A stretch of DNA of 42,968 nucleotides from an uncultured Muribaculaceae bacterium (GCA_964617705.1 CAZTXU010000001.1:1-42968); one strand, 5' to 3'; shown: positions 9,758-42,868, counted from the first letter of the stretch. Numbers and translations are program-made. The notes: generated by a model from the sequence alone, not told the origin.

Positions 9758-10123
9758 CTAATCAGTTGCTTCTTTAACATCAACACTATATTTATATCCT
9801 TCGTTAGTATTTGTAATAGTAATAGTTGTTTCGTTACTAAATTTTTTATTACTAATTGGACTTATAATATCTTCGGTTACATATCCTTCTTCTTTTAATG
9901 TTTCTAATGTAATTGTATAACTACTACCTAAACTTGGTAAATAACTACTATTATCAACAAAATAATTTTTAGTATCTTCGATAATGTTATTTATTTGAAT
10001 ATCGTAAGCATTCTTTCTATTATCTTTTAATGTTTTATCAACTATTGTAACAACGATTGTAGCAATAATTCCTAGTAATACTATAACTCCTAATAATTCA
10101 ACTAAAGTAAAACCTTTCTTCAT
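9758..10123 (-). CDS. Type IV pilin / pseudopilin-like protein (prepilin N-terminal cleavage-methylation motif)
   Basis: MKKGFTLVELLGVIVLLGIIATIVV matches the class III signal G/FTLxE. The ATG overlaps the murC stop (TAATG). Confidence 0.75.
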   Translation of the reverse strand: MKKGFTLVELLGVIVLLGIIATIVVTIVDKTLKDNRKNAYDIQINNIIEDTKNYFVDNSSYLPSLGSSYTITLETLKEEGYVTEDIISPISNKKFSNETTITITNTNEGYKYSVDVKEATD

Positions 10124-11424: not shown

Positions 11425-11461
11425 AGCATCCTCCTTATAGTTCAGTATATTCATTAATAAT

Positions 11462-11490
11462 ATTTTAACGCAAATATTTGTTATAGTCAA
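11462..11490 (-). promoter_or_regulatory. Sigma-A-like promoter of murC
   Basis: Minus strand reads TTGACT, a 17-nt spacer, then TAAAAT. Confidence 0.5.
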
Positions 11491-11504
11491 TAATTAATAT
11501 CAAG

Positions 11505-11529
11505 TACAAAAAAACTGTGTGTCCACAGT
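11505..11529 (-). terminator. Rho-independent terminator after the 620-aa pseudopilin gene
   Basis: Hairpin ACTGTG-TGTC-CACAGT sits directly after the stop and is followed by a run of T on the minus strand. Confidence 0.7.
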
Positions 11530-11530
11530 T

Positions 11531-13393
11531 TTAGAAATCTGATAAAACGCTACGAGTAGAATATCCGCTATCAGAACCACCATATCCATTACTAAAAGCA
11601 AATATTCCAGCAACTGAACCATCATAGTATCTACCGCCTCGTAAAAACCAAGAACTATTATAATATGGAAAAGATGCGTCATCTGAATACCATCCACCAG
11701 TAGTACTTCCAAATGAATTTAGAGTTTCTTTAGTTGCATCTCCTAATTTTCCTCTTGATTGAATTGTATATGATTGATTATATTTATACATATCATAATA
11801 TTTTGTTGTTGGAATAGAGGTAAATTCGGCTCTATTAGAATAAAATTCATCATTTTCTGTCAGCATATTTCCCATTGTAAATTCCCATGCTCCACCTGAC
11901 ATATCATATACTCCATAAATATTTCCTGTTGTACTTGCTTTCATTCCATTTGTTGTATTATATAAATTACATGTTGAACTTACTGCACTTCCTGCTGCTG
12001 CTCCACATCCAGTTTTTGGAATCCCAATAAAAGTTCCATCACTTGTATAATTATTTGTTCCTATATCGGTTGAGCCTAACCCATATTTACTTTGTTTTAA
12101 ATATGCTACTGCTCCCCATTCAGTATTTTTAATCATGTGTGAGTCAGCATTATTTATTTTGTATGTTGTTTTCATATTTTGAATTGAAGTAAAGAAATTG
12201 GATACAGATACTCCTCTTAGGCTAGTTACATTTGGTTTTATTGTTATTTTATCTATATTGCCACTTACTTCAAATTTTCCTATCCAAAATCCTTTCAAAT
12301 TTGTATTACCAAAAGTGAATGCTGGATGAGTATAAGTAGAAGTTCCATTAACTATGCTTCCATTTGTGTCACTACATATCTCACTTCTATTGTCTTCAGT
12401 AAAATCATCAATACACGTTACTGTTCCAGTTTTTTCTACTTCATTTTCAAAAATTACATCAATTAATTGTTCTTCTACACCTTCATTATTTCCATTGAAT
12501 ATTGTATATTTATATCTTGGTATCCATACATACCATAAGGCAATATCAGTTTCTTTTATTTCGTCTCCCACTGATTTTGTTATTCCTTCATTTAAAATAA
12601 CAGCATTTGCCCATTGTTTTTTTCTATAATTATACCAATTTTTCTGTGTTCCATTGCTATATATCCATTTGTTTCCATCATATACAATTGGTATCATTTT
12701 ATTATATAATATTGGTCTATTTGCTCCACTATTATCAGCTAATAAAGGTAGTATTACTTCTTTTACATTTAAAGTTATGCTTGCTTCAGCTTTCTTTTTG
12801 TTTGTTCCGATTGCTGTACATTTTACTGTATGACTTCCAACTTGTAATAAATTTACATTAACAGTATCACAAATAACTTCCCCACCAGTTACTCCAAAAG
12901 TAACATTAAAATATTTTTTAATTTTTTGATTGGTTTCTTCGTTTACTTCTATAGTTTCGTTTTTAGGTGTTATGGTGGGTAATACGTTATCTGTTCCATC
13001 TTTAATACAATTTACTTTTCCTGTTGTTAAATCATTACTACAAGTATAATTTTTCATTGATTTAAATTTTACATTTTGAATTTTTATTCCTCTTTCGGTT
13101 GAATCACTTGAATTATCAATTTGCCATGTTCCATAATATGGGTGTTCACCTGATAATGTTAAGTCGTCAACATTACCAGATAAATTAACTTTTCCATCTT
13201 CACTATTTAATAAATTTTCAACATAATTTGTTTTTACAGCATCGATTACGCCATAACAACTATTTTCTAATGCTTTTAATTTAGTGTTTTCTATTATATT
13301 AAAAATTATTGGTGTGGCTATTAAAATTATTATTGCCAGTACTATTATTACAGCTAATAATTCAATTAAAGTAAACCCTTTTTTATTCATCAT
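11531..13393 (-). CDS. Pseudopilin-anchored protein with Ig-like middle region and C-terminal FGE-sulfatase (SUMF1)-like domain
   Basis: N-terminus MMNKKGFTLIELLAVIIVLAIIIL is a prepilin motif. C-terminal-half motifs: FWIGKFEVS, NTEWGAVAY, GVYDMSGGAWEF (compare GxYDMxGNVWEW), and FLRGGRYY (compare RGGSW). Confidence 0.7.
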   Translation of the reverse strand: MMNKKGFTLIELLAVIIVLAIIILIATPIIFNIIENTKLKALENSCYGVIDAVKTNYVENLLNSEDGKVNLSGNVDDLTLSGEHPYYGTWQIDNSSDSTERGIKIQNVKFKSMKNYTCSNDLTTGKVNCIKDGTDNVLPTITPKNETIEVNEETNQKIKKYFNVTFGVTGGEVICDTVNVNLLQVGSHTVKCTAIGTNKKKAEASITLNVKEVILPLLADNSGANRPILYNKMIPIVYDGNKWIYSNGTQKNWYNYRKKQWANAVILNEGITKSVGDEIKETDIALWYVWIPRYKYTIFNGNNEGVEEQLIDVIFENEVEKTGTVTCIDDFTEDNRSEICSDTNGSIVNGTSTYTHPAFTFGNTNLKGFWIGKFEVSGNIDKITIKPNVTSLRGVSVSNFFTSIQNMKTTYKINNADSHMIKNTEWGAVAYLKQSKYGLGSTDIGTNNYTSDGTFIGIPKTGCGAAAGSAVSSTCNLYNTTNGMKASTTGNIYGVYDMSGGAWEFTMGNMLTENDEFYSNRAEFTSIPTTKYYDMYKYNQSYTIQSRGKLGDATKETLNSFGSTTGGWYSDDASFPYYNSSWFLRGGRYYDGSVAGIFAFSNGYGGSDSGYSTRSVLSDF

Positions 13394-13439
13394 TTCTTTC
13401 CTTCCTTTTTAGTATAAATGAAACTTATTATACTAAAAT

Positions 13440-14705
13440 TTATTCAGTATATTCAAATTCATAATCTAATATACGAATAGTATCTCCTTCTAAAGCACCT
13501 AGTTCTTTTAATTTATCATCAACTCCTAAGTGTCTTAATTTACTAGCAAAACGAGTTGCTGCTTCATCAGTATTAAATTTGGTCATACGAAGTAATTTTT
13601 CAACAACTTCACCTTTTATTACATAACAATCATCTTCTTTAATAATTGTAAAAGGTTCTTTTTCTTCAAATTTATATAAAACATGACTTTCAAATTTTTC
13701 TTCTTCATATAGTGGTTTTTTTTCAATGTTATCTAACATATTAGATAATACTTCAATAACTTCTTTTAAGCCTTCGCTTGTAATAGCTTTAATAGGATAT
13801 ACATTAGAAACTTTTTTCTTAAATTCTTCTAAATTTTCTAAAGATTTTGGCATATCCATTTTATTAGCAATAACTATTTGTGGTTTTTCTAATATTTTAG
13901 GATTAAAATCTTTTAATTCTTTGTTTATTTTAACATAATCTTCGTAAGGATTTCTTCCTTCAGTTGAACCCATATCTATAACATGGGCGATTATTCTTGT
14001 TCTTTCAATATGTTTTAAAAATTGGTCTCCTAGTCCTTCTCCTAAACTAGCTCCTTCAATTAATCCTGGTAAATCTGCTACTACAAATGATTTATTATTA
14101 GCTTTTACAACACCTAAATTAGGTTTTAATGTTGTAAAATGATAAGCAGCAATTTTTGGTTTAGCTGCTGATATTTTAGATATTATTGTCGATTTACCAA
14201 CGCTTGGCATACCAACTAATCCAACATCTGCTAACAATTTTAATTCAACTTTAATATTTTTAATTTCACCTGGTTCGCCTGCTTCAGCATACCTTGGAGC
14301 TGGATTAGATTGTGTGGCAAAGGCTATATTTCCTCTACCACCTCGCCCACCATGAGCAACTATAACTTCATCATCTTTTTTAGTTAAATCAGCAATAATT
14401 AAATTAGTATCTAAATCTGTAATTATTGTGCCTAATGGAACTCTTATAACTATATCTTCTGCTTTAGAACCATTCATACCTTTTCCTAATCCATTATTAC
14501 CTTTTTTACCTTTAATTTGTTTTTGGTATCTTAAATCAACTAATGTATTTAATCCTTCATCAACTTTAAAAATAATATCTGAACCTTTACCACCATTACC
14601 GCCATAAGGTCCACCCATTTCAATATACTTTTCTCTTCTAAAAGCCATACATCCATCGCCACCAGTTCCAGCGATTAAGATTAGCTTAACCTCATCTATA
14701 AACAT
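13440..14705 (-). CDS. obg: GTPase Obg/CgtA
   Basis: MFIDEVKLILIAGTGGDGCMAFRREKY, Gly-rich N-terminal domain, G1 motif GMPSVGKST, and a C-terminal OCT-like domain. Confidence 0.9.
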   Translation of the reverse strand: MFIDEVKLILIAGTGGDGCMAFRREKYIEMGGPYGGNGGKGSDIIFKVDEGLNTLVDLRYQKQIKGKKGNNGLGKGMNGSKAEDIVIRVPLGTIITDLDTNLIIADLTKKDDEVIVAHGGRGGRGNIAFATQSNPAPRYAEAGEPGEIKNIKVELKLLADVGLVGMPSVGKSTIISKISAAKPKIAAYHFTTLKPNLGVVKANNKSFVVADLPGLIEGASLGEGLGDQFLKHIERTRIIAHVIDMGSTEGRNPYEDYVKINKELKDFNPKILEKPQIVIANKMDMPKSLENLEEFKKKVSNVYPIKAITSEGLKEVIEVLSNMLDNIEKKPLYEEEKFESHVLYKFEEKEPFTIIKEDDCYVIKGEVVEKLLRMTKFNTDEAATRFASKLRHLGVDDKLKELGALEGDTIRILDYEFEYTE

Positions 14706-29544: not shown

Positions 29545-30333
29545 TTAATCCACATCAACGCCTTTATTTAATAAAATTTTTCCTACGTAATAAATTCCTA
29601 TATTATATATTGCATATATAACTATGCCTATTATCATCACAGTTTTAAGTGTATTGGAGTTAACTAGTGTACTATTAAATATATTCATTACATCAGGGAT
29701 TACTAATCCTAAAATATATAGTATTCCAACTGATAAAATAGATAATAAAATATATATTATAAAACCGATTAAAATTGATTTTATTATTTTTAAATTGTTT
29801 GATTTATGACCTATTATAATTCCTAGTATTCCGCTTAACATCATGAATAAAAATTCAAAAAATATTGCAGTTATCATAACTAATATTAAGCTAAATACTG
29901 AACTATTAAAATATATAGCAGAGCTTTCTAAGGTTTCTTTTAATAATATCCAAGTATCTTTATTTAAGGTACAAATAGCAAGACAAATAACTATAACAAT
30001 TACTGATGTTAATAGTGTAATAATGCTGGTTAAAATTTTTGATAGAAAAATTTTGTTTTTACTTACTGGAAGGGTATGTGTTAGATAGGATTCATCTTTA
30101 TATATATTTTTTATAAATCTTGCAAAGTTTCTCATAAGGCAATTTACTAGTATACTAATGCACATTGAAATAACCACACCACAGCATATTTTATCTATTA
30201 TTAATAATATCAAAGTTGATTCAAAGTTTTCTACTATTCTTACGAAAATTGAAAATATTATTGCAAGTATATAAAATATTATAAGGGGTTTATGAACCCA
30301 TTTTAAATCATATTTTAATAATTTATTTAACAT
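29545..30333 (-). CDS. Polytopic membrane component of a YtrA-type ABC system
   Basis: 262 aa with about six hydrophobic helices. It overlaps the ABC ATPase gene by 7 nt. Confidence 0.6.
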   Translation of the reverse strand: MLNKLLKYDLKWVHKPLIIFYILAIIFSIFVRIVENFESTLILLIIDKICCGVVISMCISILVNCLMRNFARFIKNIYKDESYLTHTLPVSKNKIFLSKILTSIITLLTSVIVIVICLAICTLNKDTWILLKETLESSAIYFNSSVFSLILVMITAIFFEFLFMMLSGILGIIIGHKSNNLKIIKSILIGFIIYILLSILSVGILYILGLVIPDVMNIFNSTLVNSNTLKTVMIIGIVIYAIYNIGIYYVGKILLNKGVDVD

Positions 30334-31022
30334 TTAAATTTCCTCCTAAATATTTCATCTATTGAAGCATTTTCTTTTTTTCTAAGTTCGTCAGCTGATG
30401 ATGTTAAAACAATTTCTCCTTTATCTATAAAAATAACTTCATCTAATATTCTTTCAATATCGCTTATTAAATGTGTTGATATAATTACACTTGCACCATT
30501 ACTAAAGTTAGATAGTATTGTATCTAATATGTAATCACGAGTTGCTGGATCAACGCCGCCTAAAGGTTCGTCTAATATATAAAGTTTAGCATCTCTACTC
30601 ATTACTAATATTAATTGTAATTTTTCTTGCATACCTTTTGACATTTTATTGATTTTTTGGTTTATGTCTAAATCTAAATCTTTAAGTAATTTTATTGCTT
30701 TTTCTTTATTAAAGTTATCATAAAATTCTTCAAAGTATGTTAAAATTTCTTTAACTTTCATGTCTTTATCTAAATAGGTTCGTTCAGGTAAATAGGATAT
30801 ATTTTTTTTAGAATCTACTCCTATTATTTTTCCGTTAATTAGTATTTCTCCTTCGGAAGGTGTTAGTAAATCATTTATTAATTTAATTAAAGTTGTTTTT
30901 CCTACTCCATTTTTTCCAAGTAAACCGATAATCTTTCCACTAGATATTTTTAAATTGATATTTTTAAGTATCTTTCTATTATCATAAGATTTACTAAGAT
31001 TTTTTATTTCTAATAATTCCAT
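30327..31022 (-). CDS. ABC transporter ATP-binding protein
   Basis: Walker A GKNGVGKTT, signature MSKGMQEKL, Walker B LYILDEP, and an H-loop. Confidence 0.9.
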   Translation of the reverse strand: MELLEIKNLSKSYDNRKILKNINLKISSGKIIGLLGKNGVGKTTLIKLINDLLTPSEGEILINGKIIGVDSKKNISYLPERTYLDKDMKVKEILTYFEEFYDNFNKEKAIKLLKDLDLDINQKINKMSKGMQEKLQLILVMSRDAKLYILDEPLGGVDPATRDYILDTILSNFSNGASVIISTHLISDIERILDEVIFIDKGEIVLTSSADELRKKENASIDEIFRRKFKC

Positions 31023-31023
31023 G

Positions 31024-31380
31024 TTATTTCACCTCACTTAAGTATTTAATTGAATCTGCTTTACTAAATCCAATTCGTTTCATTCCTTCAAAATAACTTT
31101 TTGCTAGTGTTAGGGCATATTCGTTTTTTAATTTTTCTACGACTTTTTCGTCTTTTGTAACATATTTACCATTTGTTCTTTCTGTATAAATTAATCCTAC
31201 TTCTTCAAGTTCTGTTAGTGCTTTTTGCATAGTATTTGGATTAACTTTAAAAGTTAAAGCAAAATCTCTAACTGATGGAAGTTTTTCTCCACATTTAAAT
31301 GTTCCTGAAATTATATAAATTTTAATATACTCAAGTAATTGAATATATATTGGGATATTGTTATCAAATGTTATTTCCAT
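31024..31380 (-). CDS. GntR family (YtrA subfamily) transcriptional regulator
   Basis: 118 aa. The winged-HTH motif is KLPSVRDFALTFKVNPNTMQKALTELEEVGLIYT. The short C-terminal region is typical of the YtrA subfamily. Confidence 0.85.
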   Translation of the reverse strand: MEITFDNNIPIYIQLLEYIKIYIISGTFKCGEKLPSVRDFALTFKVNPNTMQKALTELEEVGLIYTERTNGKYVTKDEKVVEKLKNEYALTLAKSYFEGMKRIGFSKADSIKYLSEVK

Positions 31381-31999: not shown

Positions 32000-32960
32000 T
32001 TATTCTAAATTTAAATCATTAATATACTCTATAAAGTAGAGTAAAATATTAACTATTTTTCCATATTTACTCAAGTTATTTAATGAAAATCTAAATGATA
32101 CTTCATTATCACTTTTAGAATTAAATTTAGTCAAACTATTGTGATTAGTACTTTTATCTGATTTTACTTCTATAGGAATTATTCTATTATTTCTTTGTAT
32201 TACAAAATCTATTTCATTTCTATCAAAAGTATAATAATTAGGTGATTCATCTAGTAAATAATTTAATACATTAGCAACATAATTTTCTGTAAATGAACCT
32301 TTAAATTATTCTAAAAGTTTATTACCTTTTAAAATAATTCTACTATCTAAATTAGACATTCTTCTTAAAAGTCCAATATCATTCATATAAATCTTATATG
32401 CTGATAAATCATGATATGATTTTAAAGGAAAATCACATTTATTTACTAAATAACACTTAGATATTAAATTAGCATCATTTAAAAAGTTTAATGCTCCTTC
32501 GTATTCTCTAGCACGAACACCTTCTTTTACTACTTGATATACAAACTTTTTATTTTCTCTTGCTAATTGTGATGGTATTCCATTCCAAATTAATGATATT
32601 TTATTTATTTTTTCTATATCTTTATCATTAACCCAACATACACAGTTTCGGGCATTCCACCAATTATATAATATATTTTTAATTTTTCTATTAATCTATC
32701 TTCAAAAATTTTAGGGATTTCATTTATATCTTTGGTTTTTCTCATGACTTCTACTAAATTTTCCGAATCATCAACAATTAAAAATTCACTAAATGTCATT
32801 GGATATAAATTTTAAAAATCTACTTTGCCAACAGGCAAAGATGTTTTAGAGAGTCTTATTCCAAGAAGTGAACCTACACATACAACATGATATTCATTTG
32901 CTTCTTCACAGAAATATTTTATTGTTTCATTTTCATTTTTAAATAATTTATATAAAATCA
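32000..32960 (-). pseudogene. 5'-truncated, multiply disrupted AAA+ ATPase (DUF4143-type) pseudogene
   Basis: Translation gives ..IKYFCEEANEYHVVCVGSLLGIRLSKTSLPVGKVDF*NLYPMTFSEF.., with a TAA where homologues have Leu. There is a frameshift near 32635 after GGMPETV. A second stop gives ..GNKLLE*FKGSFTENYV... The tail ..NEIDFVIQRNNRIIPIEVKS.. follows. No P-loop region is present. Confidence 0.65.
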
Positions 32961-32984
32961 TGAATGAGATGTCTTTTTATCATT

Positions 32985-33006
32985 TATATATATATATATA
33001 TATATA
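32985..33006. repeat. (TA)11 dinucleotide microsatellite
   Basis: Read directly from the sequence: 22 nt of uninterrupted TA. Confidence 0.95.
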
Positions 33007-33240
33007 TCGTATTTATTATTTTCCAATAAATTATTAGTTATCAAATTTAATTGATAATCTTCATTATTAATTTCATAGATATCATATACTTTTTTTCTAA
33101 TTCTTTTGTTAAAGAAGATATAGAATATTCTTTTAATGTATCTATTAAACCTAATGACATCACTGTATTTCAACTATCTCATTTTTCAAAAAAATATTAT
33201 ATCAGTTTTATATACATATACAAGTGAAATAACTTATTTT

Positions 33241-33510
33241 TATATTATATGTCGGGAACAGGTGTTTTAGCTAATAATATGTTTATTGTTAGCCTAGAAA
33301 AATCACTTGCAAAAGAATATTTATATACATATTTGAAGTAAGAAAAAATATACAAAAAATTAAATATTAGTAATGGTTAATCTGCCATGCCAGTTTTAAA
33401 TTTTCGAACTATTAAAGTTGTTGATATTACATATTCAACGAATAATGAACAATTAAAAATTGAAGAATTATTTAATAACGTAGATAGCCTTATCACTCTT
33501 CATCAACATA
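33241..33510 (+). pseudogene. Inverted, decayed hsdS target-recognition-domain fragment
   Basis: Plus-strand frame reads GTGVLANNMFIVSLEKSLAKEYLYTYLK*EKIYKKLNISNG*SAMPVLNFRTIKVVDITYSTNNEQLKIEELFNNVDSLITLHQH. It has two in-frame stops and ends in the conserved LITLHQ repeat. Confidence 0.6.
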
Positions 33511-33516
33511 ATTATA

Positions 33517-34443
33517 TTAACTATTTAAAGTTGTTAAAGCTCTCATTATTTTATCTATATCTGTATTTTCTAATTCTTGAATTATATGCAAATATGTTTT
33601 TTGTGTTGTTGACATACTCGCATGCCCTAATCTATGAGCAACACTTGCTATTGATACACCTGCATATAAAAGTATTGAGGCATGAGTATGTCTTAATCCA
33701 TGTATCGATATTATGGGTATGTTAACATTTAAACAATGCCTTCTTAGAATATCATTTATTGTTGAATTATATATTTTTGAATTTATAAATATCGGTTTAT
33801 CTTGTTCCAAATCTTTAACCAATTCAGAAAACTTAATAATAGTTTGCCAATCTAACTGAACTTTTCGCTCAGAAGATTTATTTTTCGTTTCTTGAAATCC
33901 TCCATTTTCCTTGTAATTCCATGTCTTATCTACATTCAATATTTGATGGGGAAAATCAAAATCTTTTGGAGTTAGTGCCAAAGCTTCAGAAAATCTTAGT
34001 CCTGTTTTAGCAATTAAATATATCATCCAATCATAATTTATTTTGCTATTTAAATTTAAATCTGAAATTAATTTTTGCAATTCAAATTGATTAAGATATT
34101 TATCTTTCTTATCACGAGGTGTCTTACCTTTTATTATTGCTTTTCTAGTAGGATCTTTTTCTATTAATCCATCATCAACAGCATCTAAAATAGCAGCTTT
34201 TAATTGATGATGAAAATCCATTGTACTTTGTCTTTCATGTTTTTCTGCATATTTATTTAAAATTTCTTGATACGAAATCCTATTCAATTCATATATTTTT
34301 ATTTTAGGTGCAATAATTTTTAACCACTTCGCAGTTAATTTATATTTTTGCATTGTTGAGTTTCTTATAGCTCCTTCTTTATACACTTGTATCCATCTAT
34401 CATAATAGTTACAAAATAATTCATTTACATCGTTTGCGTTCAT
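33517..34443 (-). CDS. Tyrosine site-specific recombinase (phage-integrase family) associated with hsdS cassettes
   Basis: Motifs: GLRFSEALAL (Arg), HGLRHTHAS (HxxR), and LGHASMSTTQKTYLH (His..Tyr). I chose the start at 34443 (AAGGAG upstream). The longer ORF would overlap the hsdS cassette. Confidence 0.8.
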   Translation of the reverse strand: MNANDVNELFCNYYDRWIQVYKEGAIRNSTMQKYKLTAKWLKIIAPKIKIYELNRISYQEILNKYAEKHERQSTMDFHHQLKAAILDAVDDGLIEKDPTRKAIIKGKTPRDKKDKYLNQFELQKLISDLNLNSKINYDWMIYLIAKTGLRFSEALALTPKDFDFPHQILNVDKTWNYKENGGFQETKNKSSERKVQLDWQTIIKFSELVKDLEQDKPIFINSKIYNSTINDILRRHCLNVNIPIISIHGLRHTHASILLYAGVSIASVAHRLGHASMSTTQKTYLHIIQELENTDIDKIMRALTTLNS

Positions 34444-34468
34444 TTTTATTATAAATCTCCTTCTTATC

Positions 34469-35522
34469 CTAATGTTGATGAAGGGTGATAAGGTGGTCGA
34501 GGTTTTCAAAATACTGCCCCAATACTTTCTGTTCGTCTATCTTAGGCACGGTAACGACTGTGTTTCCAACCAATTCTTTATTAAGATTATTAACTGTACT
34601 TCCGGCAGCAAAAGATTTGTATTGTTCAAGCATCTGAGTTGTTCCTAAAAGATGACAAAGGAAGGTCAAATCAAACCTCTTATTTGTATCTCTTATAAGC
34701 AACCAACCATCGTGAATACAGCCATTTATGCCCATTATATACGGTTTCCCGAAACTCATAGAGTTAGACAAAATTAAATCTCCGGGTTGTACTTGACGTG
34801 TTTTAGAAAGACCTTCCGGTTTTATTTTTTCGGCAGTTTTGGTTATATAATGCCCTTGTGATGGAGCATCGCCAATCTTAATCCAATTCAAGCCATCAGG
34901 TTCATTTGTTATATAATCTTCAATAGGTCTTGGAGAACCACCTCGTTCAATTAGAACTAATTCTGAAAACTTACGCTGTTCCCAAGAATATATTTTGATA
35001 TATGACTTACGTTGATGAAGAGTGATAAGGTTATCTATTTGAATAAATAAATCCGACATTTTATTTTGTTCCTTCAAACTAGGAATTTTAATTTTTTCAT
35101 TTTTTATTGCATTATACTGCAAATGTACAATTGTTAATCCTTGAGCTTGTTTAGCAAAAGAATATTTAACTGGATTAAAATTATTTATACAATATGAAAT
35201 AAAGTTGCCATCTATATTTTGATATGGTCTTATACCAAATAAATCTCCACCAACCCTTATATTATCTTCGTTTACACAAGATGGAGATATCAAAGATATA
35301 GCATCCACAGTTGTTGATGTTGGAAATAAAATATCATTTCTTTTAACTTCTGTTGCTTCAGTATTTGTTCTAGAATTTACATTAAAAATTCTCTCATTAT
35401 ACCTTGTATATAATTCTCCATATAAGACACATTTATATTTGCCATTTCTACATAAATCTGCATATCCCAAAGTTGAAGTATTAAAATTTTCACCTATATC
35501 AGTAACCTTACGTTGTTCCCAA
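34469..35522 (-). other. Promoterless, start-less two-TRD hsdS cassette (hsdS-prime)
   Basis: The frame is open from the WEQRK repeat. TRD-A is nucleotide-identical to TRD2 of the expressed hsdS. It is joined by a short linker, LITLHQRKSYIKIYSWEQRKFSE, to a distinct TRD-B that ends in LDHLITLHQH*. It has no N-terminal conserved region, no RBS and no ATG at its head, only an internal TTG at 35470. Confidence 0.7.
35005..35522. repeat. 518-bp direct repeat, copy B (TRD-A of the silent cassette)
   Basis: Aligned by hand block by block against 38823-39340 at a constant offset of 3818 nt. I found no mismatch. Confidence 0.85.
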
Positions 35523-35543
35523 TAAAAAAGGAAGATTATTTAA

Positions 35544-38500
35544 CTAATCTTCCAATTTTTCATGATTTACTGTTATATCAAACCCATTTTCTAATATAAA
35601 TCTTCTTAATAATTGTTGGCCTTTAATATAAACTTCAAAAGGTTGAAGATTTTTATTTTCAATACTATTAAAATATATTTTTGCCTTTTCCATATTTATA
35701 GTTTTCGATAATTTTTCAAATCTACCAAAATCATCTATATTCTTTTCTGTAACAACATGTGACATAAGATTTCTTAAAACCATTTCATCATATCCCAAAA
35801 TATTACAAAATTCTTTAATTTCATCATTTTTTTCCTTATTAGCATACTCATATATGTAATCCGTAAATTTTTTATTTGAATCTAAAACAATATTTCCAGA
35901 ATCTATATCATGAATTAAAATATTAGCATATTTTTGTTCTTCTTGTGAAAGGCTTGCAAACGACTTATGCAATTCATTCAATGAATTTTCTAGTTCTTCT
36001 TTAGTTATATTAGTCTGAGATAATGACTTTAAATACTTATCAAATTTTGCATTCATATAATCTGCATCAATTTTACCAGTATCTATTTCAATAATAGTAA
36101 AGTCAATTTTATATGGAATATCATCTTTACCATATTGTGATTCTTTTCCTTTTTGAACCTCGTTATATCTTTGTAATAAAGTATTAAAAGAGCTTTCATC
36201 ACATTCTGTTTTTATGCATTCATTATATAATGTTACATCAGACTCTTGGTTTTCTTCATCCTCATGAATACTTTGTTCAAGTGCATCTGTACTTTCTCCC
36301 ATATTGTTTATAAAATATAAATCTTTTTCCCATTTAAATCCTTGTACTCTAGCTGCATTTAAATATTTATTAAATTCTTGAAATAATTTAACAAATTTTG
36401 CTTTATCAATTTTATCATTTGGCAATTTTTCAAAGTTATATATCCCACAACTATTAAATAAATTCTTTATTTCTTCGTATTTTGAATTCATATGTTTCAA
36501 ATTTTCATCAATTTTATCTACAAATAATCCAAAAGGCTTGTCTCCAGAATATAATTTTAAAGCTTTATTTATATTATTTTGCATTGTATTCGTTTTTCTG
36601 TAATACTTAATAATTCCAAAATCTTTTCCTCTTCCAAATACTCTATTTGTTCTTGAAAACGCTTGAATTATATTTTGATATTTCATCATTTTATCTAAAT
36701 ATAATGTATTTAAATATTTAGAGTCATACCCAGTAAGCATTTGATCGACTACAATTAATAAATCCAGTTTTTCTTCAGGCTTATTATCTATCATTGAATA
36801 TTGTTTCTTATGTGCTAATCTTAATGAAATATCTTTTTTCATTTTATCATAACTTGGAATAGTAAATGTTTGATTATACATTTCATTATAGTCTTTTATT
36901 ATTTCCTCTAATCCATCTTCTTTAAATGATATTCCACCAGTATTATCTAATGAAGGATCAAACAATCCAGTTATATTTATACTAGCATTATGTAATTTAA
37001 ATTGTCGATAATATTTTATTGCTTCTTTTATACTCGAAGTTGCAAGTATAGCTGAAAAAGTTCTACCAAAACTTATTCTATCCCAATTTTGTAAAATATT
37101 TTTAATTACTTGATTTCTATGTTCATCATTATCGTATTGAGAGTCAGGAATGTAATCTTCGATTCCCTTAATGTATTCTCCAGTTTCAGTTTCGTAACCA
37201 TACATCGATACATTATTCATATATTTATAATAAATATCTTTTTTATCATCTGTATCAAGTTCATTAAAATTTTTGGCTTTTGCTTTTTCTAGTGCTACCA
37301 CTTCTCTAAGTGAATTATCACTATATGTCTTAACCATAGATGGATCAAATCCTAAAACATTTCCATCTCTTATGCCATCGGCAATACTATATCTATGTAA
37401 TTCATCTCCAAACACATCAGATTGAGTTAACCCTTTAACAGTATTTTCTTTAAATATTGGTGTACCAGTAAATCCGAAAAATAATGCTTTAGGAAAGGTT
37501 TCTTTTATTGAAATGAGCATTTCACCAAATGTATCTCTATGGCATTCATCAATTATAAATACTAATCTCTTTTTATTTATTTCAGCTATATCATCTAAAT
37601 TTAATGAAACGTCCCTTATTCTAGATAATTTTTGAATTGAAGTGACAATTAACGTTTTATCCGAATCGTTACTCTTTAACTTAGAAATTAAATCAAACGT
37701 ATTTCGAGTTCCGGAAACGTCCCCATCCTCATCCATAAACCCTCTAAATTCTCTTAAAGATTGGTCTCCTAACTCAACTCTGTCTAGCAAGAAAACTACT
37801 TTATCCGCATCTTTTGAATTTGCAATTAATTCTGCAGATTTAAACGAAGTTAAAGTTTTACCCGAACCTGTTGTATGCCAAATATATCCACCATGGGAAT
37901 CTAAAGAGTTCCAATCATTTTTAGAAACTCTATCGGATATTTTCCAAGCAGCAAAATATTGATAACTTCTCATTACCTTTAGTACACCATCTAAATCATC
38001 GGCTACAGTATAAAATCCAATTAACTGATGTGCCATAGGAATTGATAAAAATTTATCAGCCACTTCTTTCCAGTCATTTATAGGCTCATTGTTGAAATTA
38101 GCCCAATGAAAATAAAATTTATTATTAAATTTACCATCCGGTCCAGGATTAGCAAAGTATATTGTTTCTTCTGGATTCATAGCAACAAATATTTGTACTA
38201 ATGAAAATAATCCGCTAAAAACCCCTTCATTTGAATATTTCTCAATTTGGTATGCAGCTCGTGTAACGTCAATCTTACTTTTTTTTAATTCTATATGAAT
38301 AACTGGCATGCCATTAATTAAAAGCATTATATCCCCACGTCTATCGTTAAACATTGATTTTGTTTTAAAAATTGGTTGTTCTGCTATTTGATAGCGTGAT
38401 TGCCCAGCCGCAATTTCATTTCTATCGTATATTTTTAGACTTACTTCTTTACCCAAATGTAACTTATCATTTGGATTATCTCTTTTAATGCTAACAGATG

Positions 38501-38756
38501 TACCATTTATAAAACTATTAAGTCTTAAAGGTGTTCTTAATCTAGTAATTTGCTCTAATATTTGTTGCATTTCAGTATCAGTAAGAGGTTCATTATTTAG
38601 TCTATCTATATTTCTATTATTTTGAAATAAAATGTCTTTCCAGTTATTAATTAAATCTTCTTCAGTAGGGTGATTCAATACCCCACCTTCCCAACCTTTG
38701 GTTTTCAAAACTTCAACTAAATCATGTTCAAATTGTAATTCATCAGTATATATCAT
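35544..38756 (-). CDS. hsdR: Type I restriction enzyme R subunit
   Basis: PD-(D/E)xK-like DIMLLINGMPVIHIELKKS, Walker A HTTGSGKTLT, and the DEAD-box variant IIDECHR. I chose the start at 38756 (AAGAGGAGA 6 nt upstream). Confidence 0.9.
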   Translation of the reverse strand: MIYTDELQFEHDLVEVLKTKGWEGGVLNHPTEEDLINNWKDILFQNNRNIDRLNNEPLTDTEMQQILEQITRLRTPLRLNSFINGTSVSIKRDNPNDKLHLGKEVSLKIYDRNEIAAGQSRYQIAEQPIFKTKSMFNDRRGDIMLLINGMPVIHIELKKSKIDVTRAAYQIEKYSNEGVFSGLFSLVQIFVAMNPEETIYFANPGPDGKFNNKFYFHWANFNNEPINDWKEVADKFLSIPMAHQLIGFYTVADDLDGVLKVMRSYQYFAAWKISDRVSKNDWNSLDSHGGYIWHTTGSGKTLTSFKSAELIANSKDADKVVFLLDRVELGDQSLREFRGFMDEDGDVSGTRNTFDLISKLKSNDSDKTLIVTSIQKLSRIRDVSLNLDDIAEINKKRLVFIIDECHRDTFGEMLISIKETFPKALFFGFTGTPIFKENTVKGLTQSDVFGDELHRYSIADGIRDGNVLGFDPSMVKTYSDNSLREVVALEKAKAKNFNELDTDDKKDIYYKYMNNVSMYGYETETGEYIKGIEDYIPDSQYDNDEHRNQVIKNILQNWDRISFGRTFSAILATSSIKEAIKYYRQFKLHNASINITGLFDPSLDNTGGISFKEDGLEEIIKDYNEMYNQTFTIPSYDKMKKDISLRLAHKKQYSMIDNKPEEKLDLLIVVDQMLTGYDSKYLNTLYLDKMMKYQNIIQAFSRTNRVFGRGKDFGIIKYYRKTNTMQNNINKALKLYSGDKPFGLFVDKIDENLKHMNSKYEEIKNLFNSCGIYNFEKLPNDKIDKAKFVKLFQEFNKYLNAARVQGFKWEKDLYFINNMGESTDALEQSIHEDEENQESDVTLYNECIKTECDESSFNTLLQRYNEVQKGKESQYGKDDIPYKIDFTIIEIDTGKIDADYMNAKFDKYLKSLSQTNITKEELENSLNELHKSFASLSQEEQKYANILIHDIDSGNIVLDSNKKFTDYIYEYANKEKNDEIKEFCNILGYDEMVLRNLMSHVVTEKNIDDFGRFEKLSKTINMEKAKIYFNSIENKNLQPFEVYIKGQQLLRRFILENGFDITVNHEKLED

Positions 38757-38769
38757 ATTAAATCTCCTC

Positions 38770-39987
38770 TTATACAAACATTTTTTCTAATAAACTCTTC
38801 TTAATATTTTGTAATTTAGCTAACTTACGTTGATGAAGAGTGATAAGGTTATCTATTTGAATAAATAAATCCGACATTTTATTTTGTTCCTTCAAACTAG
38901 GAATTTTAATTTTTTCATTTTTTATTGCATTATACTGCAAATGTACAATTGTTAATCCTTGAGCTTGTTTAGCAAAAGAATATTTAACTGGATTAAAATT
39001 ATTTATACAATATGAAATAAAGTTGCCATCTATATTTTGATATGGTCTTATACCAAATAAATCTCCACCAACCCTTATATTATCTTCGTTTACACAAGAT
39101 GGAGATATCAAAGATATAGCATCCACAGTTGTTGATGTTGGAAATAAAATATCATTTCTTTTAACTTCTGTTGCTTCAGTATTTGTTCTAGAATTTACAT
39201 TAAAAATTCTCTCATTATACCTTGTATATAATTCTCCATATAAGACACATTTATATTTGCCATTTCTACATAAATCTGCATATCCCAAAGTTGAAGTATT
39301 AAAATTTTCACCTATATCAGTAACCTTACGTTGTTCCCAAACGTCAGTAAATCCTTTAAATCTAATTTCTGGTGGATTAGATGGATTTTTAGGGAACATT
39401 TTTTCCAACATAGATTTTTTCATATTCACTAACTTATCATACTTACGTTGATGAAGGGTGATAAGGCGGTCGAGGTTTTCAAAGTATTCAGCTATTTTTG
39501 CTTGTTCCTGCTCATCTTTTGAAATGAAAACTTCTATTTCACTCAATGCCGGATATTTCAAATTCCAGTTGTCGGATGTTATTCCTTGCGAGTTAATTTG
39601 AAAAGTATGAATCATATCAGGCAACTTAAATTGATATGCCAAGCACTTTGAATTTATCCCCGAATTTGGCGAAAGTACCGTGTATGCGGGGCTTACAATG
39701 CCTTCATAAGGAGAATACCCACTTGCACCTTGCCACATTCTCATTGAGTTATAAGCAATATCTCCAACGCAAACCTTCTTATATTTGGACTTGTCCTCAT
39801 TGGAATTGTCGTGCCTACCAAGTTCAGAAAACTTCTTAATACCATCATTGATAGTAACTGAAATCAATTCGCCATCAGGCATACTTTCAACTCGCTCTGT
39901 AAAGCAATCTCCCAACTTACGCTGTTCCCAAACGTCAGTAAATCCTTTAAATCTAATTTTTGGCGTTAACTTATTATTATCATTCAT
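38770..39987 (-). CDS. hsdS: Type I restriction-modification specificity subunit (two TRDs)
   Basis: RFKGFTDVWEQRK occurs twice and LITLHQRK twice. The coiled-coil spacers are KLVNMKKSMLEKMF and LAKLQNIKKSLLEKMF. The ATG at 39987 overlaps the hsdM TGA (ATGAATGA). An alternative ATG is at 39999. Confidence 0.85.
   Translation of the reverse strand: MNDNNKLTPKIRFKGFTDVWEQRKLGDCFTERVESMPDGELISVTINDGIKKFSELGRHDNSNEDKSKYKKVCVGDIAYNSMRMWQGASGYSPYEGIVSPAYTVLSPNSGINSKCLAYQFKLPDMIHTFQINSQGITSDNWNLKYPALSEIEVFISKDEQEQAKIAEYFENLDRLITLHQRKYDKLVNMKKSMLEKMFPKNPSNPPEIRFKGFTDVWEQRKVTDIGENFNTSTLGYADLCRNGKYKCVLYGELYTRYNERIFNVNSRTNTEATEVKRNDILFPTSTTVDAISLISPSCVNEDNIRVGGDLFGIRPYQNIDGNFISYCINNFNPVKYSFAKQAQGLTIVHLQYNAIKNEKIKIPSLKEQNKMSDLFIQIDNLITLHQRKLAKLQNIKKSLLEKMFV
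38823..39340. repeat. 518-bp direct repeat, copy A (TRD2 of the expressed hsdS)
   Basis: Same hand alignment as above. The boundaries fall in the LITLHQRK-encoding and WEQRK-encoding conserved repeats. Confidence 0.85.
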
Positions 39988-42568
39988 TAAAATCACCATT
40001 TAATAAAGATTTTAATTCTTCAAGACCTTTCATATCAAATTCGTTACCAGTTAGTTCATCTATCATGGTTGATAGGTTTCTTTCTACATTAATGATTTCC
40101 TTCTCCAAATCTTCAAACGTTTCTTCGTATTTTTTAGAAAGTTTTTCTATTTTTTTTGAAAAGTCGCTAATCACTTCATTAATTATGTTAAAAATATTTT
40201 CTTTTATAGGGTTTATCCACTTATCTTCTAATAACAAATAGATTTCTTCAACATTTAATGTTTCAATTCTCTCTTTTGTTTTAATTTGTAATTCATTAAA
40301 ATCATTTTTAACTGTTACTTTTAATTCTTTTTCTTCTAAATACAAGTCATTTAATTTAAATAATTTTTCCTCAATGCTTCCATCTTCTATTAATAAATTA
40401 TCCTTTTTAAGTTCTTTTACTTTTTTCGTTATTTCTGCAAATCTGAAAGCTGTATTATCATCATTTAATAAAGAACTGATTGATGTTTTATCTTCTTCGC
40501 TTAATTCATCTAGTATTTCTTCATATAAACTGGCAATTTCAGATAATCTATTATTCTCTTCATCTAATTTATCAATTTTATCTTTAAGAAAATGTTTTTG
40601 AACTATCTCGAAAGGAATTATTTTTCCTTTCCAACCTTCTTGTACTTCTACTTCTAAACCGTTTTTCTTTTTAACGACCATGTTTGGTTCTACTTCTGAA
40701 CATGAATTGAATCCTTCTTTATGTATAATTTCAAGATCTTGTGATATTTTATTCCAAATATCATCTAACATTTGATACGCCTGATAATTATTAACAAGTT
40801 TAACATCTTTTATTATATTAAATAATTTTTCTGACAATTTTTCTTCTTCTGAAGCGATATCTATTGTATACATATTATAAATTAATTCTTCTTTTAATCC
40901 TTTAGAATAATTGTCAATTATAGTATTATAATTATTAACATAATTCTTTACACTTTCATAATTGTTAATAAAATCATATGGATTTTCAATTTTCAACTCA
41001 TAGTAATTATCATTGATTTTATTAAATAAATTTTCTTTTAAATTTATAAATGTATTCCAAAATAAATCATATTTATCTAATTCATTAGAAGGTATGCCAC
41101 CAAACATTAATGCATATATATCATAAGTTTCCGCCTCTTCTGATGAATCCACATATCTAGGAATATTTAGGTTATAATCATTACTTCTTATTTCTTCTAG
41201 AGAAACAATCTTAGAAAATTTTTCTACATTTTCTCTATTAATTATAGCGTCAACAATTTTCTTAATATCACATGCTCTTAATACATTATTTTTTCCTTCT
41301 TTAACAAAACCTTTAGAGGCATCTATTATTTGAATGTCTGTATTTGACTTATTCTTCTTTAACACCATTATTATAGTTGGTATACCTGTTCCAAAAAATA
41401 TGTTTGCTGGTAATCCAATTATTGCATCTATATTATTATGTTCAATGAGATTTTTTCTTATTTTTCCTTCTTCCCCACCTCTAAATAAAACTCCATGTGG
41501 TAAAACTATTGTCATTATTCCATCTGATTTTAAATGATATAAATCATGTAGTAAGAAAGCATAATCTGCTACACCTTTTGGAGCAATTCCATATTCTTTA
41601 TATCTTGGGTCTGTCTCTCTGTCATCAGAATCCCATTGTTGAGAATACGGAGGGTTGGATACAACGGCATCTACAAATAATGGATTATATGTATGTTCTG
41701 GATCAGTTTCATCAAAATAAGGCCAGTCAGTTTCAAGTGTATCTCCATTTCTAACAAATAGATTACTTGGTAATATACCTCTCATAATTAAATTCATTCT
41801 TGTTAGATTGTATGTATTTTGTTTTAATTCTTGTGCATAATATTTTATTCCATTTGAATCATTCATATATCTAGAAACTGAACTACCTATATTTATTAAT
41901 AAAGAACCTGAACCACTTGTTGGATCATAAATTTCTATATGTTCTCTGTCTTTTAAATAATTTGCAATAATATCTGACATTAATTTTGAGACTTCATGTG
42001 GTGTATAAAATTCTCCTGCTTTTTTACCAGCATTTGCAGCAAAATTTGATATTAAATATTCATATATGAAACCCAAAACATCATAATCCTCTTTATTATC
42101 CATCGGTATGTCTTTAATTAAATTAATTAATTCTCTAACCGCTTTATTTTGAGAAGCTTCTGTATCTCCTAATTTACTTAATCCAGTTTCAAGTGTAGTA
42201 AATATTCCTTCAAAAACTTTTTTGTAATTTTTTCCAATGTTTCTACTAAATGCTGACAATGCCACTCTAACATTTGAAATTTTAAAATCAGTTCCTTTTT
42301 CAATCCATGTTGAAAATAAGTTATCATAAGCTATAAAATAACCAATGTTTTTTTGTAGGTGATCTACTGTATCATGATTTGCTTCATTTAATTGTCTTAT
42401 ATTTTCATCCGTGTAATAATGTTCCTTTAAATAATTTAATTCTTTTTTAGATAAAAATTTATAAAATATAAAACCTAAAATATAATCTTTATATTCATTT
42501 GCTTCAATTTTTGAACGCATCTTATTTGCAGATTCCCAAATTTTCGAAGCTAATTGCTGTTTATTCAT
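39980..42568 (-). CDS. hsdM: Type I restriction-modification methyltransferase subunit with a C-terminal extension of about 390 aa
   Basis: HsdM_N-like MNKQQLASKIWESANKMRSKIEANEYKDYILGFIFYKFLS, FYTPHEV, DPTSGSGSLL, and NPPYS. The usual C-terminal DYNLNIPRYVD occurs at about residue 470 of 862. Confidence 0.85.
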   Translation of the reverse strand: MNKQQLASKIWESANKMRSKIEANEYKDYILGFIFYKFLSKKELNYLKEHYYTDENIRQLNEANHDTVDHLQKNIGYFIAYDNLFSTWIEKGTDFKISNVRVALSAFSRNIGKNYKKVFEGIFTTLETGLSKLGDTEASQNKAVRELINLIKDIPMDNKEDYDVLGFIYEYLISNFAANAGKKAGEFYTPHEVSKLMSDIIANYLKDREHIEIYDPTSGSGSLLINIGSSVSRYMNDSNGIKYYAQELKQNTYNLTRMNLIMRGILPSNLFVRNGDTLETDWPYFDETDPEHTYNPLFVDAVVSNPPYSQQWDSDDRETDPRYKEYGIAPKGVADYAFLLHDLYHLKSDGIMTIVLPHGVLFRGGEEGKIRKNLIEHNNIDAIIGLPANIFFGTGIPTIIMVLKKNKSNTDIQIIDASKGFVKEGKNNVLRACDIKKIVDAIINRENVEKFSKIVSLEEIRSNDYNLNIPRYVDSSEEAETYDIYALMFGGIPSNELDKYDLFWNTFINLKENLFNKINDNYYELKIENPYDFINNYESVKNYVNNYNTIIDNYSKGLKEELIYNMYTIDIASEEEKLSEKLFNIIKDVKLVNNYQAYQMLDDIWNKISQDLEIIHKEGFNSCSEVEPNMVVKKKNGLEVEVQEGWKGKIIPFEIVQKHFLKDKIDKLDEENNRLSEIASLYEEILDELSEEDKTSISSLLNDDNTAFRFAEITKKVKELKKDNLLIEDGSIEEKLFKLNDLYLEEKELKVTVKNDFNELQIKTKERIETLNVEEIYLLLEDKWINPIKENIFNIINEVISDFSKKIEKLSKKYEETFEDLEKEIINVERNLSTMIDELTGNEFDMKGLEELKSLLNGDFNE

Positions 42569-42648: not shown

Positions 42649-42868
42649 TTTTGCCCAGTAATTTGTTGACAAAATTTAATTTTTGTAAATATCATGACAC
42701 ATTTCACACATAACCTCTACAAAATAAACCTTGGTTTCCAAATTATATATGCTAAAATGTGGTAAAATCAGTAAATTTATGGGGCTGTTGCAAAATTAAA
42801 TAATTAATTTCTAATAGCCACCTTTTTGTCATGCTCATACTTTTATACGCTATTTCAAATAACCTATT

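Follow-up and report, generated by a model that had tools for sequence, protein, structure and literature searches.

The subject of this study is a Type I restriction-modification (R-M) locus in a contig of 42,968 nt from an uncultured Muribaculaceae bacterium (GCA_964617705.1, CAZTXU010000001.1:1-42968). The window, as I will call the whole of this stretch, is an entire metagenome-assembled contig (P0001). Besides hsdM, hsdS and hsdR, the locus contains a tyrosine recombinase gene and spare target recognition domains (TRDs). It is probably a member of a large family of recombinase-driven, multi-site TRD shufflons that reside in Type I operons and switch by inversions. What carries this reading is the pair of short motifs bounding every TRD of the window, the different TRD arrangements in three samples that share one HsdR, and the inversion states seen in relatives.

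The minus strand holds, in this order, hsdM, hsdS, hsdR, a start-less cassette of two TRDs, and the tyrosine recombinase gene, each confirmed by Pfam. The plus strand holds a truncated, inverted TRD remnant at 33251-33506, which includes one of the motifs (L'). The original prediction, made from the raw sequence, had drawn the same layout, and Pfam together with the open reading frames (ORFs) bears it out. The features are listed below; contigs and loci used for comparison carry three-digit numbers (L134, for example) and should not be confused with the sites L1 to L4.

39980..42568, minus: hsdM, 862 aa, Type I methyltransferase subunit; Pfam N6_Mtase (1.7e-104) and HsdM_N
38770..39987 (or 39999), minus: live hsdS; Pfam Methylase_S in two stretches
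39916..39930, minus: W1 site, TGGGAACAGCGTAAG, encoding WEQRK
39484..39915, minus: TRD1 (T12); a 100% identical copy lies directly upstream of the recombinase gene (slot 4) in L001
39448..39465, minus: L1 site, CTTATCACCCTTCATCAA, encoding LITLHQ
39325..39339, minus: W2 site, motif match
38848..39324, minus: TRD2 (T20, copy a); the same TRD is in slots 1 and 3 of L134
38830..38847, minus: L2 site, motif match
35544..38756, minus: hsdR, 1070 aa from ATG; a TTG at 38777 is open too
35530..35553, minus: terminator-like hairpin and T-run, -14.6 kcal/mol; overlaps the hsdR stop codon and ends at W3
34472-35522, minus: start-less two-TRD cassette; Pfam Methylase_S in two stretches
35507..35521, minus: W3 site, start of the start-less cassette
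35030..35506, minus: cassette TRD-A (T20, copy b; silent slot 3), identical to TRD2
35012..35029, minus: L3 site, motif match
34970..34984, minus: W4 site, motif match
34493..34969, minus: cassette TRD-B (T13; silent slot 4), 100% identical in L003
34475..34492, minus: L4 site, then a stop codon and the AAGGAG ribosome-binding site of the recombinase gene
33517..34443, minus: tyrosine recombinase, 308 aa; Pfam Phage_integrase (1e-22)
33489..33506, plus: L' site, the only inverted L site in the window (the 'pivot'), 18/18 match
33251..33488, plus: T5p, remains of a dead inverted TRD: its C-terminal half, with the W' stub GTCGGGAAC (33251-33259)

The start of hsdS is the ATG used by the called gene in L134, and an alternative upstream ATG at 39999 is possible. 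The live gene runs through an N-terminal region, W1, TRD1 (T12), L1, a central region, W2, TRD2 (T20) and L2 to a C-terminal helix. HsdR has the Pfam domains HSDR_N, ResIII, SWI2_SNF2, T1R_D3-like and EcoR124_C. The start-less cassette has neither an N-terminal region nor a start codon; its first base is at W3, directly after the terminator-like hairpin of hsdR. Inverting Type I systems are characterized by a full gene set, a silent hsdS sequence, a recombinase and repeats that connect live and silent copies, and the locus possesses each of these: hsdM, hsdS and hsdR are complete according to Pfam, a silent, start-less hsdS sequence with alternative TRDs is present, a site-specific recombinase is encoded in the locus, and inverted repeats within the hsdS coding sequence link the live gene to the silent copy by way of L'.

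Hairpins equivalent to that of hsdR stand ahead of W3 in L005, L009, L017, L026, L027, L030 and L039, with stems that differ and pairing that is kept, and in L027 and L030 the inverted slot, too, has a hairpin of this kind on its strand. Standing ahead of the first silent slot, such a hairpin resembles a conserved terminator, which would insulate the silent cassettes.

The W and L sites and the recombinase

The W motif (TGGGAACARCGTAAG, coding for WEQRK) occurs four times in the window, always on the minus strand, at 34970, 35507, 39325 and 39916. The L motif (CTTATCACYCTTCATCAA, coding for LITLHQ) has four copies on the minus strand (34475, 35012, 38830 and 39448) and a fifth on the plus strand (33489-33506). 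The chance expectation is zero for both. Every TRD in the window is bounded by the same two short motifs, and the motif search returns the positions that had been given for the WEQRK and LITLHQ repeats, just as repeat analysis agrees with the earlier report of a 37-nt flank common to TRD-B and TRD1. The identity of TRD-A with the live TRD2 is new. It forms part of a perfect 518-nt direct repeat (35005-35522 = 38823-39340) that starts at W, ends shortly after L and has hsdR between its two copies.

L' matches L2 and L3 at 18 of 18 positions and L1 and L4 at 17 of 18. It pairs in inverted orientation with all four direct L sites, with extended arms of 46-74 nt at 76-78%. It had been claimed that the only inverted partner in the locus is decayed and that the only inverted repeat pair brackets the recombinase gene. 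The first half of the claim stands: the T5p remnant has two in-frame stops and is, judged by its sequence, the product of an internal deletion from inside W' to mid-TRD, and an intact inverted W is absent from the window, where there is only the stub at 33251-33259. The second half does not, because L' pairs with each of L1 to L4. The remnant is identical in L001, L002 and L003.

The frame that continues from the LITLHQ of the inverted remnant (33387-33725, plus strand) stays free of stops over some 70 codons, on the strand opposite the 3' end of the recombinase gene, and codes for a hydrophobic tail. It is open also in L026, L031 and L033 and is closed after 9 codons in L009. In single-inversion states this frame would be fused to a truncated HsdS.

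W and most L sites share their final 9 nt, CAACGTAAG, which are the QRK codons (for example at 39325-39339 and 38823-38847); L4 and L' do not have them. The shared 9 nt were considered as a core necessary for crossover at W and L, a candidate that was rejected because L4 and L' are without CAACGTAAG and yet a state with a flipped recombinase gene exists (L036). The polymorphic R base of W and the Y base of L travel with the TRD, and this suggests that the crossovers fall in TGGGAACA and CTTCATCA.

The TRDs themselves are found beyond the immediate relatives of the locus. T13 (TRD-B) is present in L053 (ENA ERZ27302285, 3121-5634), a locus of unrelated layout, at 94% nt and 99% aa identity, from which it follows that TRDs spread horizontally between loci. 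In L053 a two-TRD cassette and a recombinase gene are divergent from an hsdM of another type, and an inverted TRD follows the recombinase gene. In a full HsdS (P0166), the N-terminal slot holds a relative of TRD-B with 87% aa identity.

The catalytic residues of the recombinase are intact: R150, K173, H248, R251, H274 and Y284 are invariant in the alignment. Its gene follows the cassette after a gap of 25 nt and has its own AAGGAG ribosome-binding site. The protein is 57-63% identical to integrases within classical inverting Type I loci (Listeria innocua, L. ultunensis, Mycoplasmopsis cynos). It has thousands of relatives, those found in a scan of GTDB genomes being only 66-85% identical and coming from assorted metagenome-assembled genomes.

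The block from L4 through the recombinase gene to L' (33447-34501 in the window, 9943-10997 in L005) is 93.7% identical in nt and 98.7% in aa between the two loci, and the higher value for the protein indicates that the recombinase is under strong constraint. In the same pair hsdM is 74% identical in nt (64% aa) and hsdR 69% (58% aa); the figure of only 64% aa identity for HsdM holds for the loci with 97-99% identical recombinases. The recombinase block between inverted L sites seems, from these comparisons, to have been exchanged among divergent Type I operons. In addition, many Logan contigs of about 1,017-1,027 nt contain the recombinase gene alone, with L4 and L' at its two sides (L014-L016, L046-L048, L154, L155 and others). 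An invertible segment, or one with variable neighbours, is expected to appear like this in a de Bruijn graph.

TRD arrangements in the lineage of the window and in its relatives

Contigs of the window's own lineage were found by look-ups of the exact HsdR protein (L134, L135 and L136) and of the exact recombinase, and come from three samples. Their hsdM is 99.94% and their hsdR 99.9-100% identical in nt to those of the window, and they have the same dead T5p remnant. The arrangements, in the order live TRDs / hsdR / silent TRDs / recombinase gene, are these:

Window, its junctions supported at 100% identity by the independent contigs L003, L004 and L136 from SRR6824180: T12, T20 / hsdR / T20, T13 / rec
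ERZ27271044: T20, Tz / hsdR / T20... (L134); Tz directly before the recombinase gene, as Tz-L4-rec (L002)
SRR6824197: Tz in slot 3 (L135); T12 in slot 4 (L001)

Across this lineage of identical HsdR, T12 is thus found in slots 1 and 4, T20 in slots 1, 2 and 3, and Tz in slots 2, 3 and 4, and the expressed allele differs among strains (T12 with T20 as opposed to T20 with Tz). TRD1 of the window occupies the position of TRD-B in the sibling strain L001, in keeping with the proposal that TRD-B could replace TRD1. The exact live HsdS protein, with the start as used, has no match in the collection. The exact HsdM has one, a single short contig that ends at the start of hsdS and is uninformative, because a 37-nt exact repeat at that point breaks k=31 assembly anyway.

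Since samples that share HsdR and the dead remnant have different TRD arrangements, the TRDs were rearranged after the inverted TRD had decayed. This disposes of the suggestion that the locus might be a fossil shufflon. A related view is that the locus is frozen now, the differences among strains being old events or horizontal replacements, and that switching was disabled by the loss of W' and half of the inverted TRD. The internal deletion and the stops of that TRD speak for such a history, as do the presence of the same dead remnant in all four contigs of the lineage and the failure to recover a contig of the lineage in the inverted state. Nonetheless I regard it as very doubtful. Three samples with the dead remnant and with identical recombinase and HsdR differ in the TRDs of slots 1 to 4, so the rearrangements either post-date the decay or take no notice of it; the recombinase is intact and strongly constrained (98.7% aa as against 93.7% nt identity to L005); L' is a perfect site (18/18); and inverted copies with an L site and no recognisable W are found also in L017 and several other lineages of the same layout.

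Relatives of the locus share a common plan. It is seen in loci with recombinases 97-99% identical (L005, L009, L017 and L039) and 84% identical (the P0044 set, L030-L038) to that of the window, and consists of hsdM; hsdS with two W-TRD-L units; hsdR; a terminator-like hairpin; the start-less cassette, with one or two W-TRD-L units; the recombinase gene; and an inverted L-TRD-W unit. In every locus checked for one, an inverted L site adjoins the recombinase gene. Members of the family are common in gut metagenomes, and a single scan gave more than 549 related loci in highly varied states.

The loci of the P0044 set have the same recombinase protein and the same flanking genes, and the TRDs T0, T1, T2, T3 and T10 are permuted over all five slots. 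Three examples follow (M, hsdM; R, hsdR; rec, recombinase gene; <, inverted):

L030: M T2 T3 R T0 rec <T1
L032: M T0 T3 R T10 T1 rec <T2
L034: M T10 T1 R T2 T0 rec <T3

In this set the 14 nt on the outer side of every W and L are constant for a given slot and the TRD moves, which places crossovers at both W and L. L032 and L034 are reciprocal permutations in which no TRD has been lost. Outside the rearranged part, L030 and L031 agree at 100% over flanks of 5.5 and 5.0 kb; between these, 5.4 kb comprising the rest of hsdS, hsdR, the cassette and the recombinase gene are inverted, and the two breakpoints, at L1 and L', show overlaps of 32 nt. Other states occur as well where the recombinases are identical or 97-99% identical, and such states recur with other recombinase alleles. 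L036 has the recombinase gene inverted relative to hsdR, with the central hsdS region in a two-TRD unit downstream of hsdR, the state rec> <TRD <hsdM is found in L009, L026, L137 and L147, and the state rec> <TRD <hsdR in L139, L140 and L148. Products of direct-site recombination are present too: L033, in the same background as L030 and L031, combines a deletion from W1 to W2 with an inversion between L2 and L', and the single-TRD cassette of L030 has the W context of slot 3 and the L context of slot 4, as a deletion product does.

A sister clade, with recombinases about 70% identical, provides further oddities. The first 3,064 nt of L057 are the reverse complement of its last 3,064 nt at 99.9%, making it a fold-back contig; L128 has a 3.4-kb tandem duplication of hsdR and a TRD; and L110 and L132 lack hsdR, their TRDs and recombinase gene coming after hsdM. 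These are either signs of heterogeneity and direct-site recombination or assembly artefacts. The recombinase-only contigs and the fold-back contig L057 were considered as proof of heterogeneity within samples and set aside as suggestive only, since mixtures of strains or repeats could do the same.

Inversion and the alternatives to it

Inversions that generate hsdS alleles were seen in relatives (L030 and L031, and the permutations), and the alternative alleles of the window's lineage come from contigs only. By its features the locus in the window is an inverting Type I system, or epigenetic inverton, except that inversion itself has been shown only in relatives. A mechanism that would account for these arrangements is the following. 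The TRDs would behave as universal cassettes, each bounded by W (the WEQRK codons) and L (the LITLHQ codons) and each able to occupy any of several slots: two expressed in hsdS, one or two silent after the hsdR terminator and in the orientation of hsdS, and one inverted beyond the recombinase gene. The tyrosine recombinase of the locus would recombine W with W and L with L. In the first inversion, the inverted site would react with a direct L or W, flipping a block that can hold hsdR, the cassette and the recombinase gene. Because the block flipped by a first L x L' event contains W and L sites, silent cassettes that had been direct would become inverted partners of the live gene. Further inversions would then swap TRDs and restore the operon. 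In the window the inverted TRD is dead, and L', which is intact, would be enough as a hinge. Reactions at direct sites would occur on the side, giving deletions, tandem duplications and duplicated TRDs.

What such a mechanism can reach was calculated with a graph model of signed tokens and a breadth-first search. The only move allowed was an inversion, between two sites of one type that face opposite ways. If the inverted slot is complete, 5,760 states can be reached, among them 120 of the 120 TRD permutations in the canonical layout, and eight inversions separate L032 from L034. If L' is the sole inverted site, which is the layout of the window, 1,152 states can be reached, among them 24 of the 24 permutations over the four direct slots. 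Four inversions are needed for the swap of T12 and T13 found in L001.

In the single-inversion intermediates, hsdS is cut after LITLHQ, and hsdR lies behind the terminator-like hairpin, away from hsdM. With hsdS truncated and hsdR uncoupled, these intermediates are probably R-M OFF. I infer that the recombinase, given its sequence, is the catalyst of the rearrangements, that switching occurs within a clone, and that the locus of the window still switches.

The original prediction had supposed that any switching would need gene conversion, or excision and reintegration between direct repeats. That requirement falls away, in that relatives differ by plain inversions at L sites and the model reaches the arrangements by inversion alone. 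The part of the claim that remains valid is that direct-repeat events do occur (L033, L030 and the duplicated TRDs), and both of the routes it named deserve consideration.

Excision and reintegration might be the main route, as in the pneumococcal tvr locus, with a circle formed between a direct pair of W or L sites and reinserted at a site of the other type. Removal of W1-W4, for example, followed by reintegration at L1/L4, would swap T12 and T13 in two steps. Direct-repeat switching has its precedent in tvr, where the mechanism has been demonstrated (PMC6265443). In the window, 4 of 4 W sites and 4 of 5 L sites are direct. Direct-site deletion products in otherwise identical backgrounds (W1-W2 in L033, and L030), tandem duplications that fit reinsertion or unequal exchange (hsdR and TRD in L128, T0-T0 in L031 and L035) and the hsdR-less layouts of L110 and L132 also suit this route. 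It is nevertheless unlikely to be the main one. Single-inversion states were seen repeatedly and directly in relatives, and excision leaves unexplained why an inverted L' is kept beside the recombinase gene even where the TRD behind it is dead. Moreover, the circle would carry hsdR and would have to reinsert before it was lost, and the locus has no toxin-antitoxin pair resembling tvrAT. Inversion is the better-supported main route, because of the inverted L' kept beside the recombinase gene and the inversion states observed, with direct-repeat recombination as a real side reaction in the family.

The second route, gene conversion or allelic recombination between genome copies, would make the silent cassettes donors (as in pilS/pilE) and give the recombinase a secondary part. 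In its favour are the duplicated TRDs: the window has two copies of T20, ERZ27271044 has both T20 and Tz in two contexts apiece, and L031 and L035 have T0-T0. Such duplicates are bounded exactly by W and L (as in the 518-nt repeat), the signature of a non-reciprocal or inter-copy event. The horizontal spread of T13 to the unrelated layout of L053 (94% nt) and the block L4-rec-L', 94% identical in nt to L005 as compared with about 70-74% for hsdM and hsdR, agree with it too. On the other hand, the homology at cassette edges is just 15-48 nt, short for RecA-dependent conversion, and conversion accounts neither for reciprocal permutations without loss (L032 and L034) nor for clean inversions (L030 and L031). 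The duplicates, moreover, may be chimeras assembled from mixed populations. The unitigs L136 and L003 stop exactly 30 nt (k-1) into the shared T20 tract, which shows that T20 has two contexts in that sample and fits duplication and mixed assembly alike. Conversion is, on balance, improbable as the chief mover of TRDs.

Several points weigh against switching by inversion in the window. Inversions cannot make duplicated TRDs, and so another process is called for, or the assembly of a mixed population. The duplicates could arise by exchange between differently arranged genome copies, by reinsertion of circles or by unequal exchange between sister chromosomes. They could instead be artificial, if assembly placed in both slots a TRD that is in different slots in different cells. 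No contig of the window's lineage was recovered in an inverted state, among the few contigs there are; because only canonical, 'joined' junctions were recovered from it, the inversion route in this lineage is extrapolated from relatives. All of the TRD variation seen is between samples or assemblies rather than among the reads of one clone. The mechanism assumes one recombinase acting on two different short sites. Finally, the many direct sites should permit the loss of hsdR, and hence something must limit deletion.

Surroundings and comparison with known systems

The left part of the window is chromosomal, with the housekeeping genes parC, parE, murC and obg (4741-14705 and 30327-31380), which point to a Gram-positive type, and the immediate neighbours of the locus are a GntR-family regulator and an ABC ATPase. 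The G+C content of the window is about 24%. The contexts of the related loci L005 and L039 and of L030-L038 resemble conjugative elements, in contrast to the chromosomal housekeeping genes around the window. Short ORFs at 32614-33173 were considered as remnants of an ATPase gene and dropped, as Pfam found nothing in them. A promoter scan of the window gave no more sites than in shuffled controls, and no promoter is claimed for the recombinase gene.

An element of 79 nt lies at 42694-42770 in the window, about 130-200 nt upstream of hsdM, and contains a motif resembling TTGATT-18-TATAAT. In L005 the element forms a perfect inverted repeat at the two ends of the R-M module (1691-1769 and 11835-11913), and in L039 an inverted downstream copy of the window's element (11721-11799) is 92% identical to it; the window has only the upstream copy. 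The element could be a second promoter, directed outward or inward, or could mark the ends of the module.

Inverting Type I systems change their specificity by inversion (PMC7672463, PMC7394358, PMC9881135), and in L. ultunensis the inversions were confirmed by long reads (PMC9881135). The locus resembles ivr/SpnD39III (cod) and the inverters of Listeria, S. suis, E. faecalis and L. ultunensis in its start-less extra hsdS, its tyrosine recombinase and its short hsdS repeats, and the integrases of L. ultunensis and Listeria innocua are 57-61% identical to the recombinase of the window. It had been recognised from the start as a recombinase-associated Type I locus that shuffles specificity and whose layout is unlike that of the pneumococcal ivr, and this holds good: the silent cassettes are direct, and hsdR lies between live and silent TRDs. 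In ivr-type loci the silent copies lie in inverted orientation to the live gene, and a new functional allele needs a single inversion, whereas the family of the window has direct cassettes and would need several inversions for each swap. In ivr-type loci there are separate pools of 5' and 3' TRDs and hsdR is outside the invertible segment, while in the window's family TRDs with the same W and L flanks are found in either half of hsdS, and hsdR and the recombinase gene are within the block that flips. Furthermore, the silent cassettes of this family are behind hsdR and its terminator, and the hinge can be the stub of a dead TRD.

The S. pneumoniae tvr (SpnIV) locus is similar in its direct spare TRD segments, its two kinds of short repeats, its own recombinase and its deletion products (PMC6265443). 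All repeats of tvr are direct and circles are demonstrated intermediates, in contrast to the window's family, in which one inverted site is kept (one L in the window) and inversion states are found in relatives. The tvr recombinase is regulated by the toxin-antitoxin tvrAT and an attenuator; in the window there is no extra ORF between the cassette and the recombinase gene, only the 25-nt gap.

Large invertible blocks that include hsd enzyme genes are a feature also of the hsd loci of Mycoplasma pulmonis; these loci are cited in PMC11062135. Mycoplasmopsis cynos NCTC10142 has hsdM-hsdS-hsdR followed by an integrase (62.7% identical) and silent hsdS copies, but there integrase and silent copies form one block that faces the opposite way to the operon, and a direct cassette with a single inverted pivot is not seen. 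In the plasmid R64 shufflon, recombined by Rci, there are many copies of a short site, and segments invert singly or in groups, passing through both orientations. The target of that shufflon is the C-terminus of pilV and it has one type of site, in contrast to the two types and the deletions of the window's family; shufflon PilV is mentioned in PMC9881135. The BREX pglX gene of Lacticaseibacillus rhamnosus (Milman et al. 2023) swaps an internal segment by two nested inversions, through unstable, truncated intermediates one inversion away (PMC9881135). In those intermediates too the recombinase gene adjoins the truncated gene. The target of the BREX system, however, is pglX rather than hsdS, and it has no direct silent cassettes behind another enzyme gene. 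Tandem hsdS pseudogenes in the same orientation have been described in M. faucium (PMC11062135) and a direct-repeat locus in Sphaerochaeta (PMC7672463). No description of the present architecture was found in the open-access literature searched.

That the family constitutes a distinct and widespread shufflon of universal cassettes, in which any TRD can serve in either half of HsdS, silent stores are direct, a single inverted hinge suffices, be it only the stub of a dead TRD, and the first flip, of hsdR, the cassette and the recombinase gene, converts the stores into donors, is a proposal I would place slightly short of an even chance. If it is true, the switching of specificity would be obligatorily coupled to transient R-M OFF states, and the block L-rec-L' could pass as a unit from one Type I operon to another, divergent one.

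Surveys of phase-variable Type I systems look for inverted hsdS copies beside the live gene (PMC7394358, PMC7672463). Because most of its spare TRDs are stored in direct orientation behind hsdR, this family may be under-counted by such screens or misread as decayed. Loci of this sort also break or scramble short-read assemblies, leaving duplicated TRDs, fold-back contigs and 1-kb contigs with only the recombinase gene. If the route by several inversions is right, a locus with n TRDs would reach any pairing of them and would pass through states in which restriction and modification are off, which would bear on phage defence, DNA uptake and epigenetic heterogeneity in uncultured gut Firmicutes.

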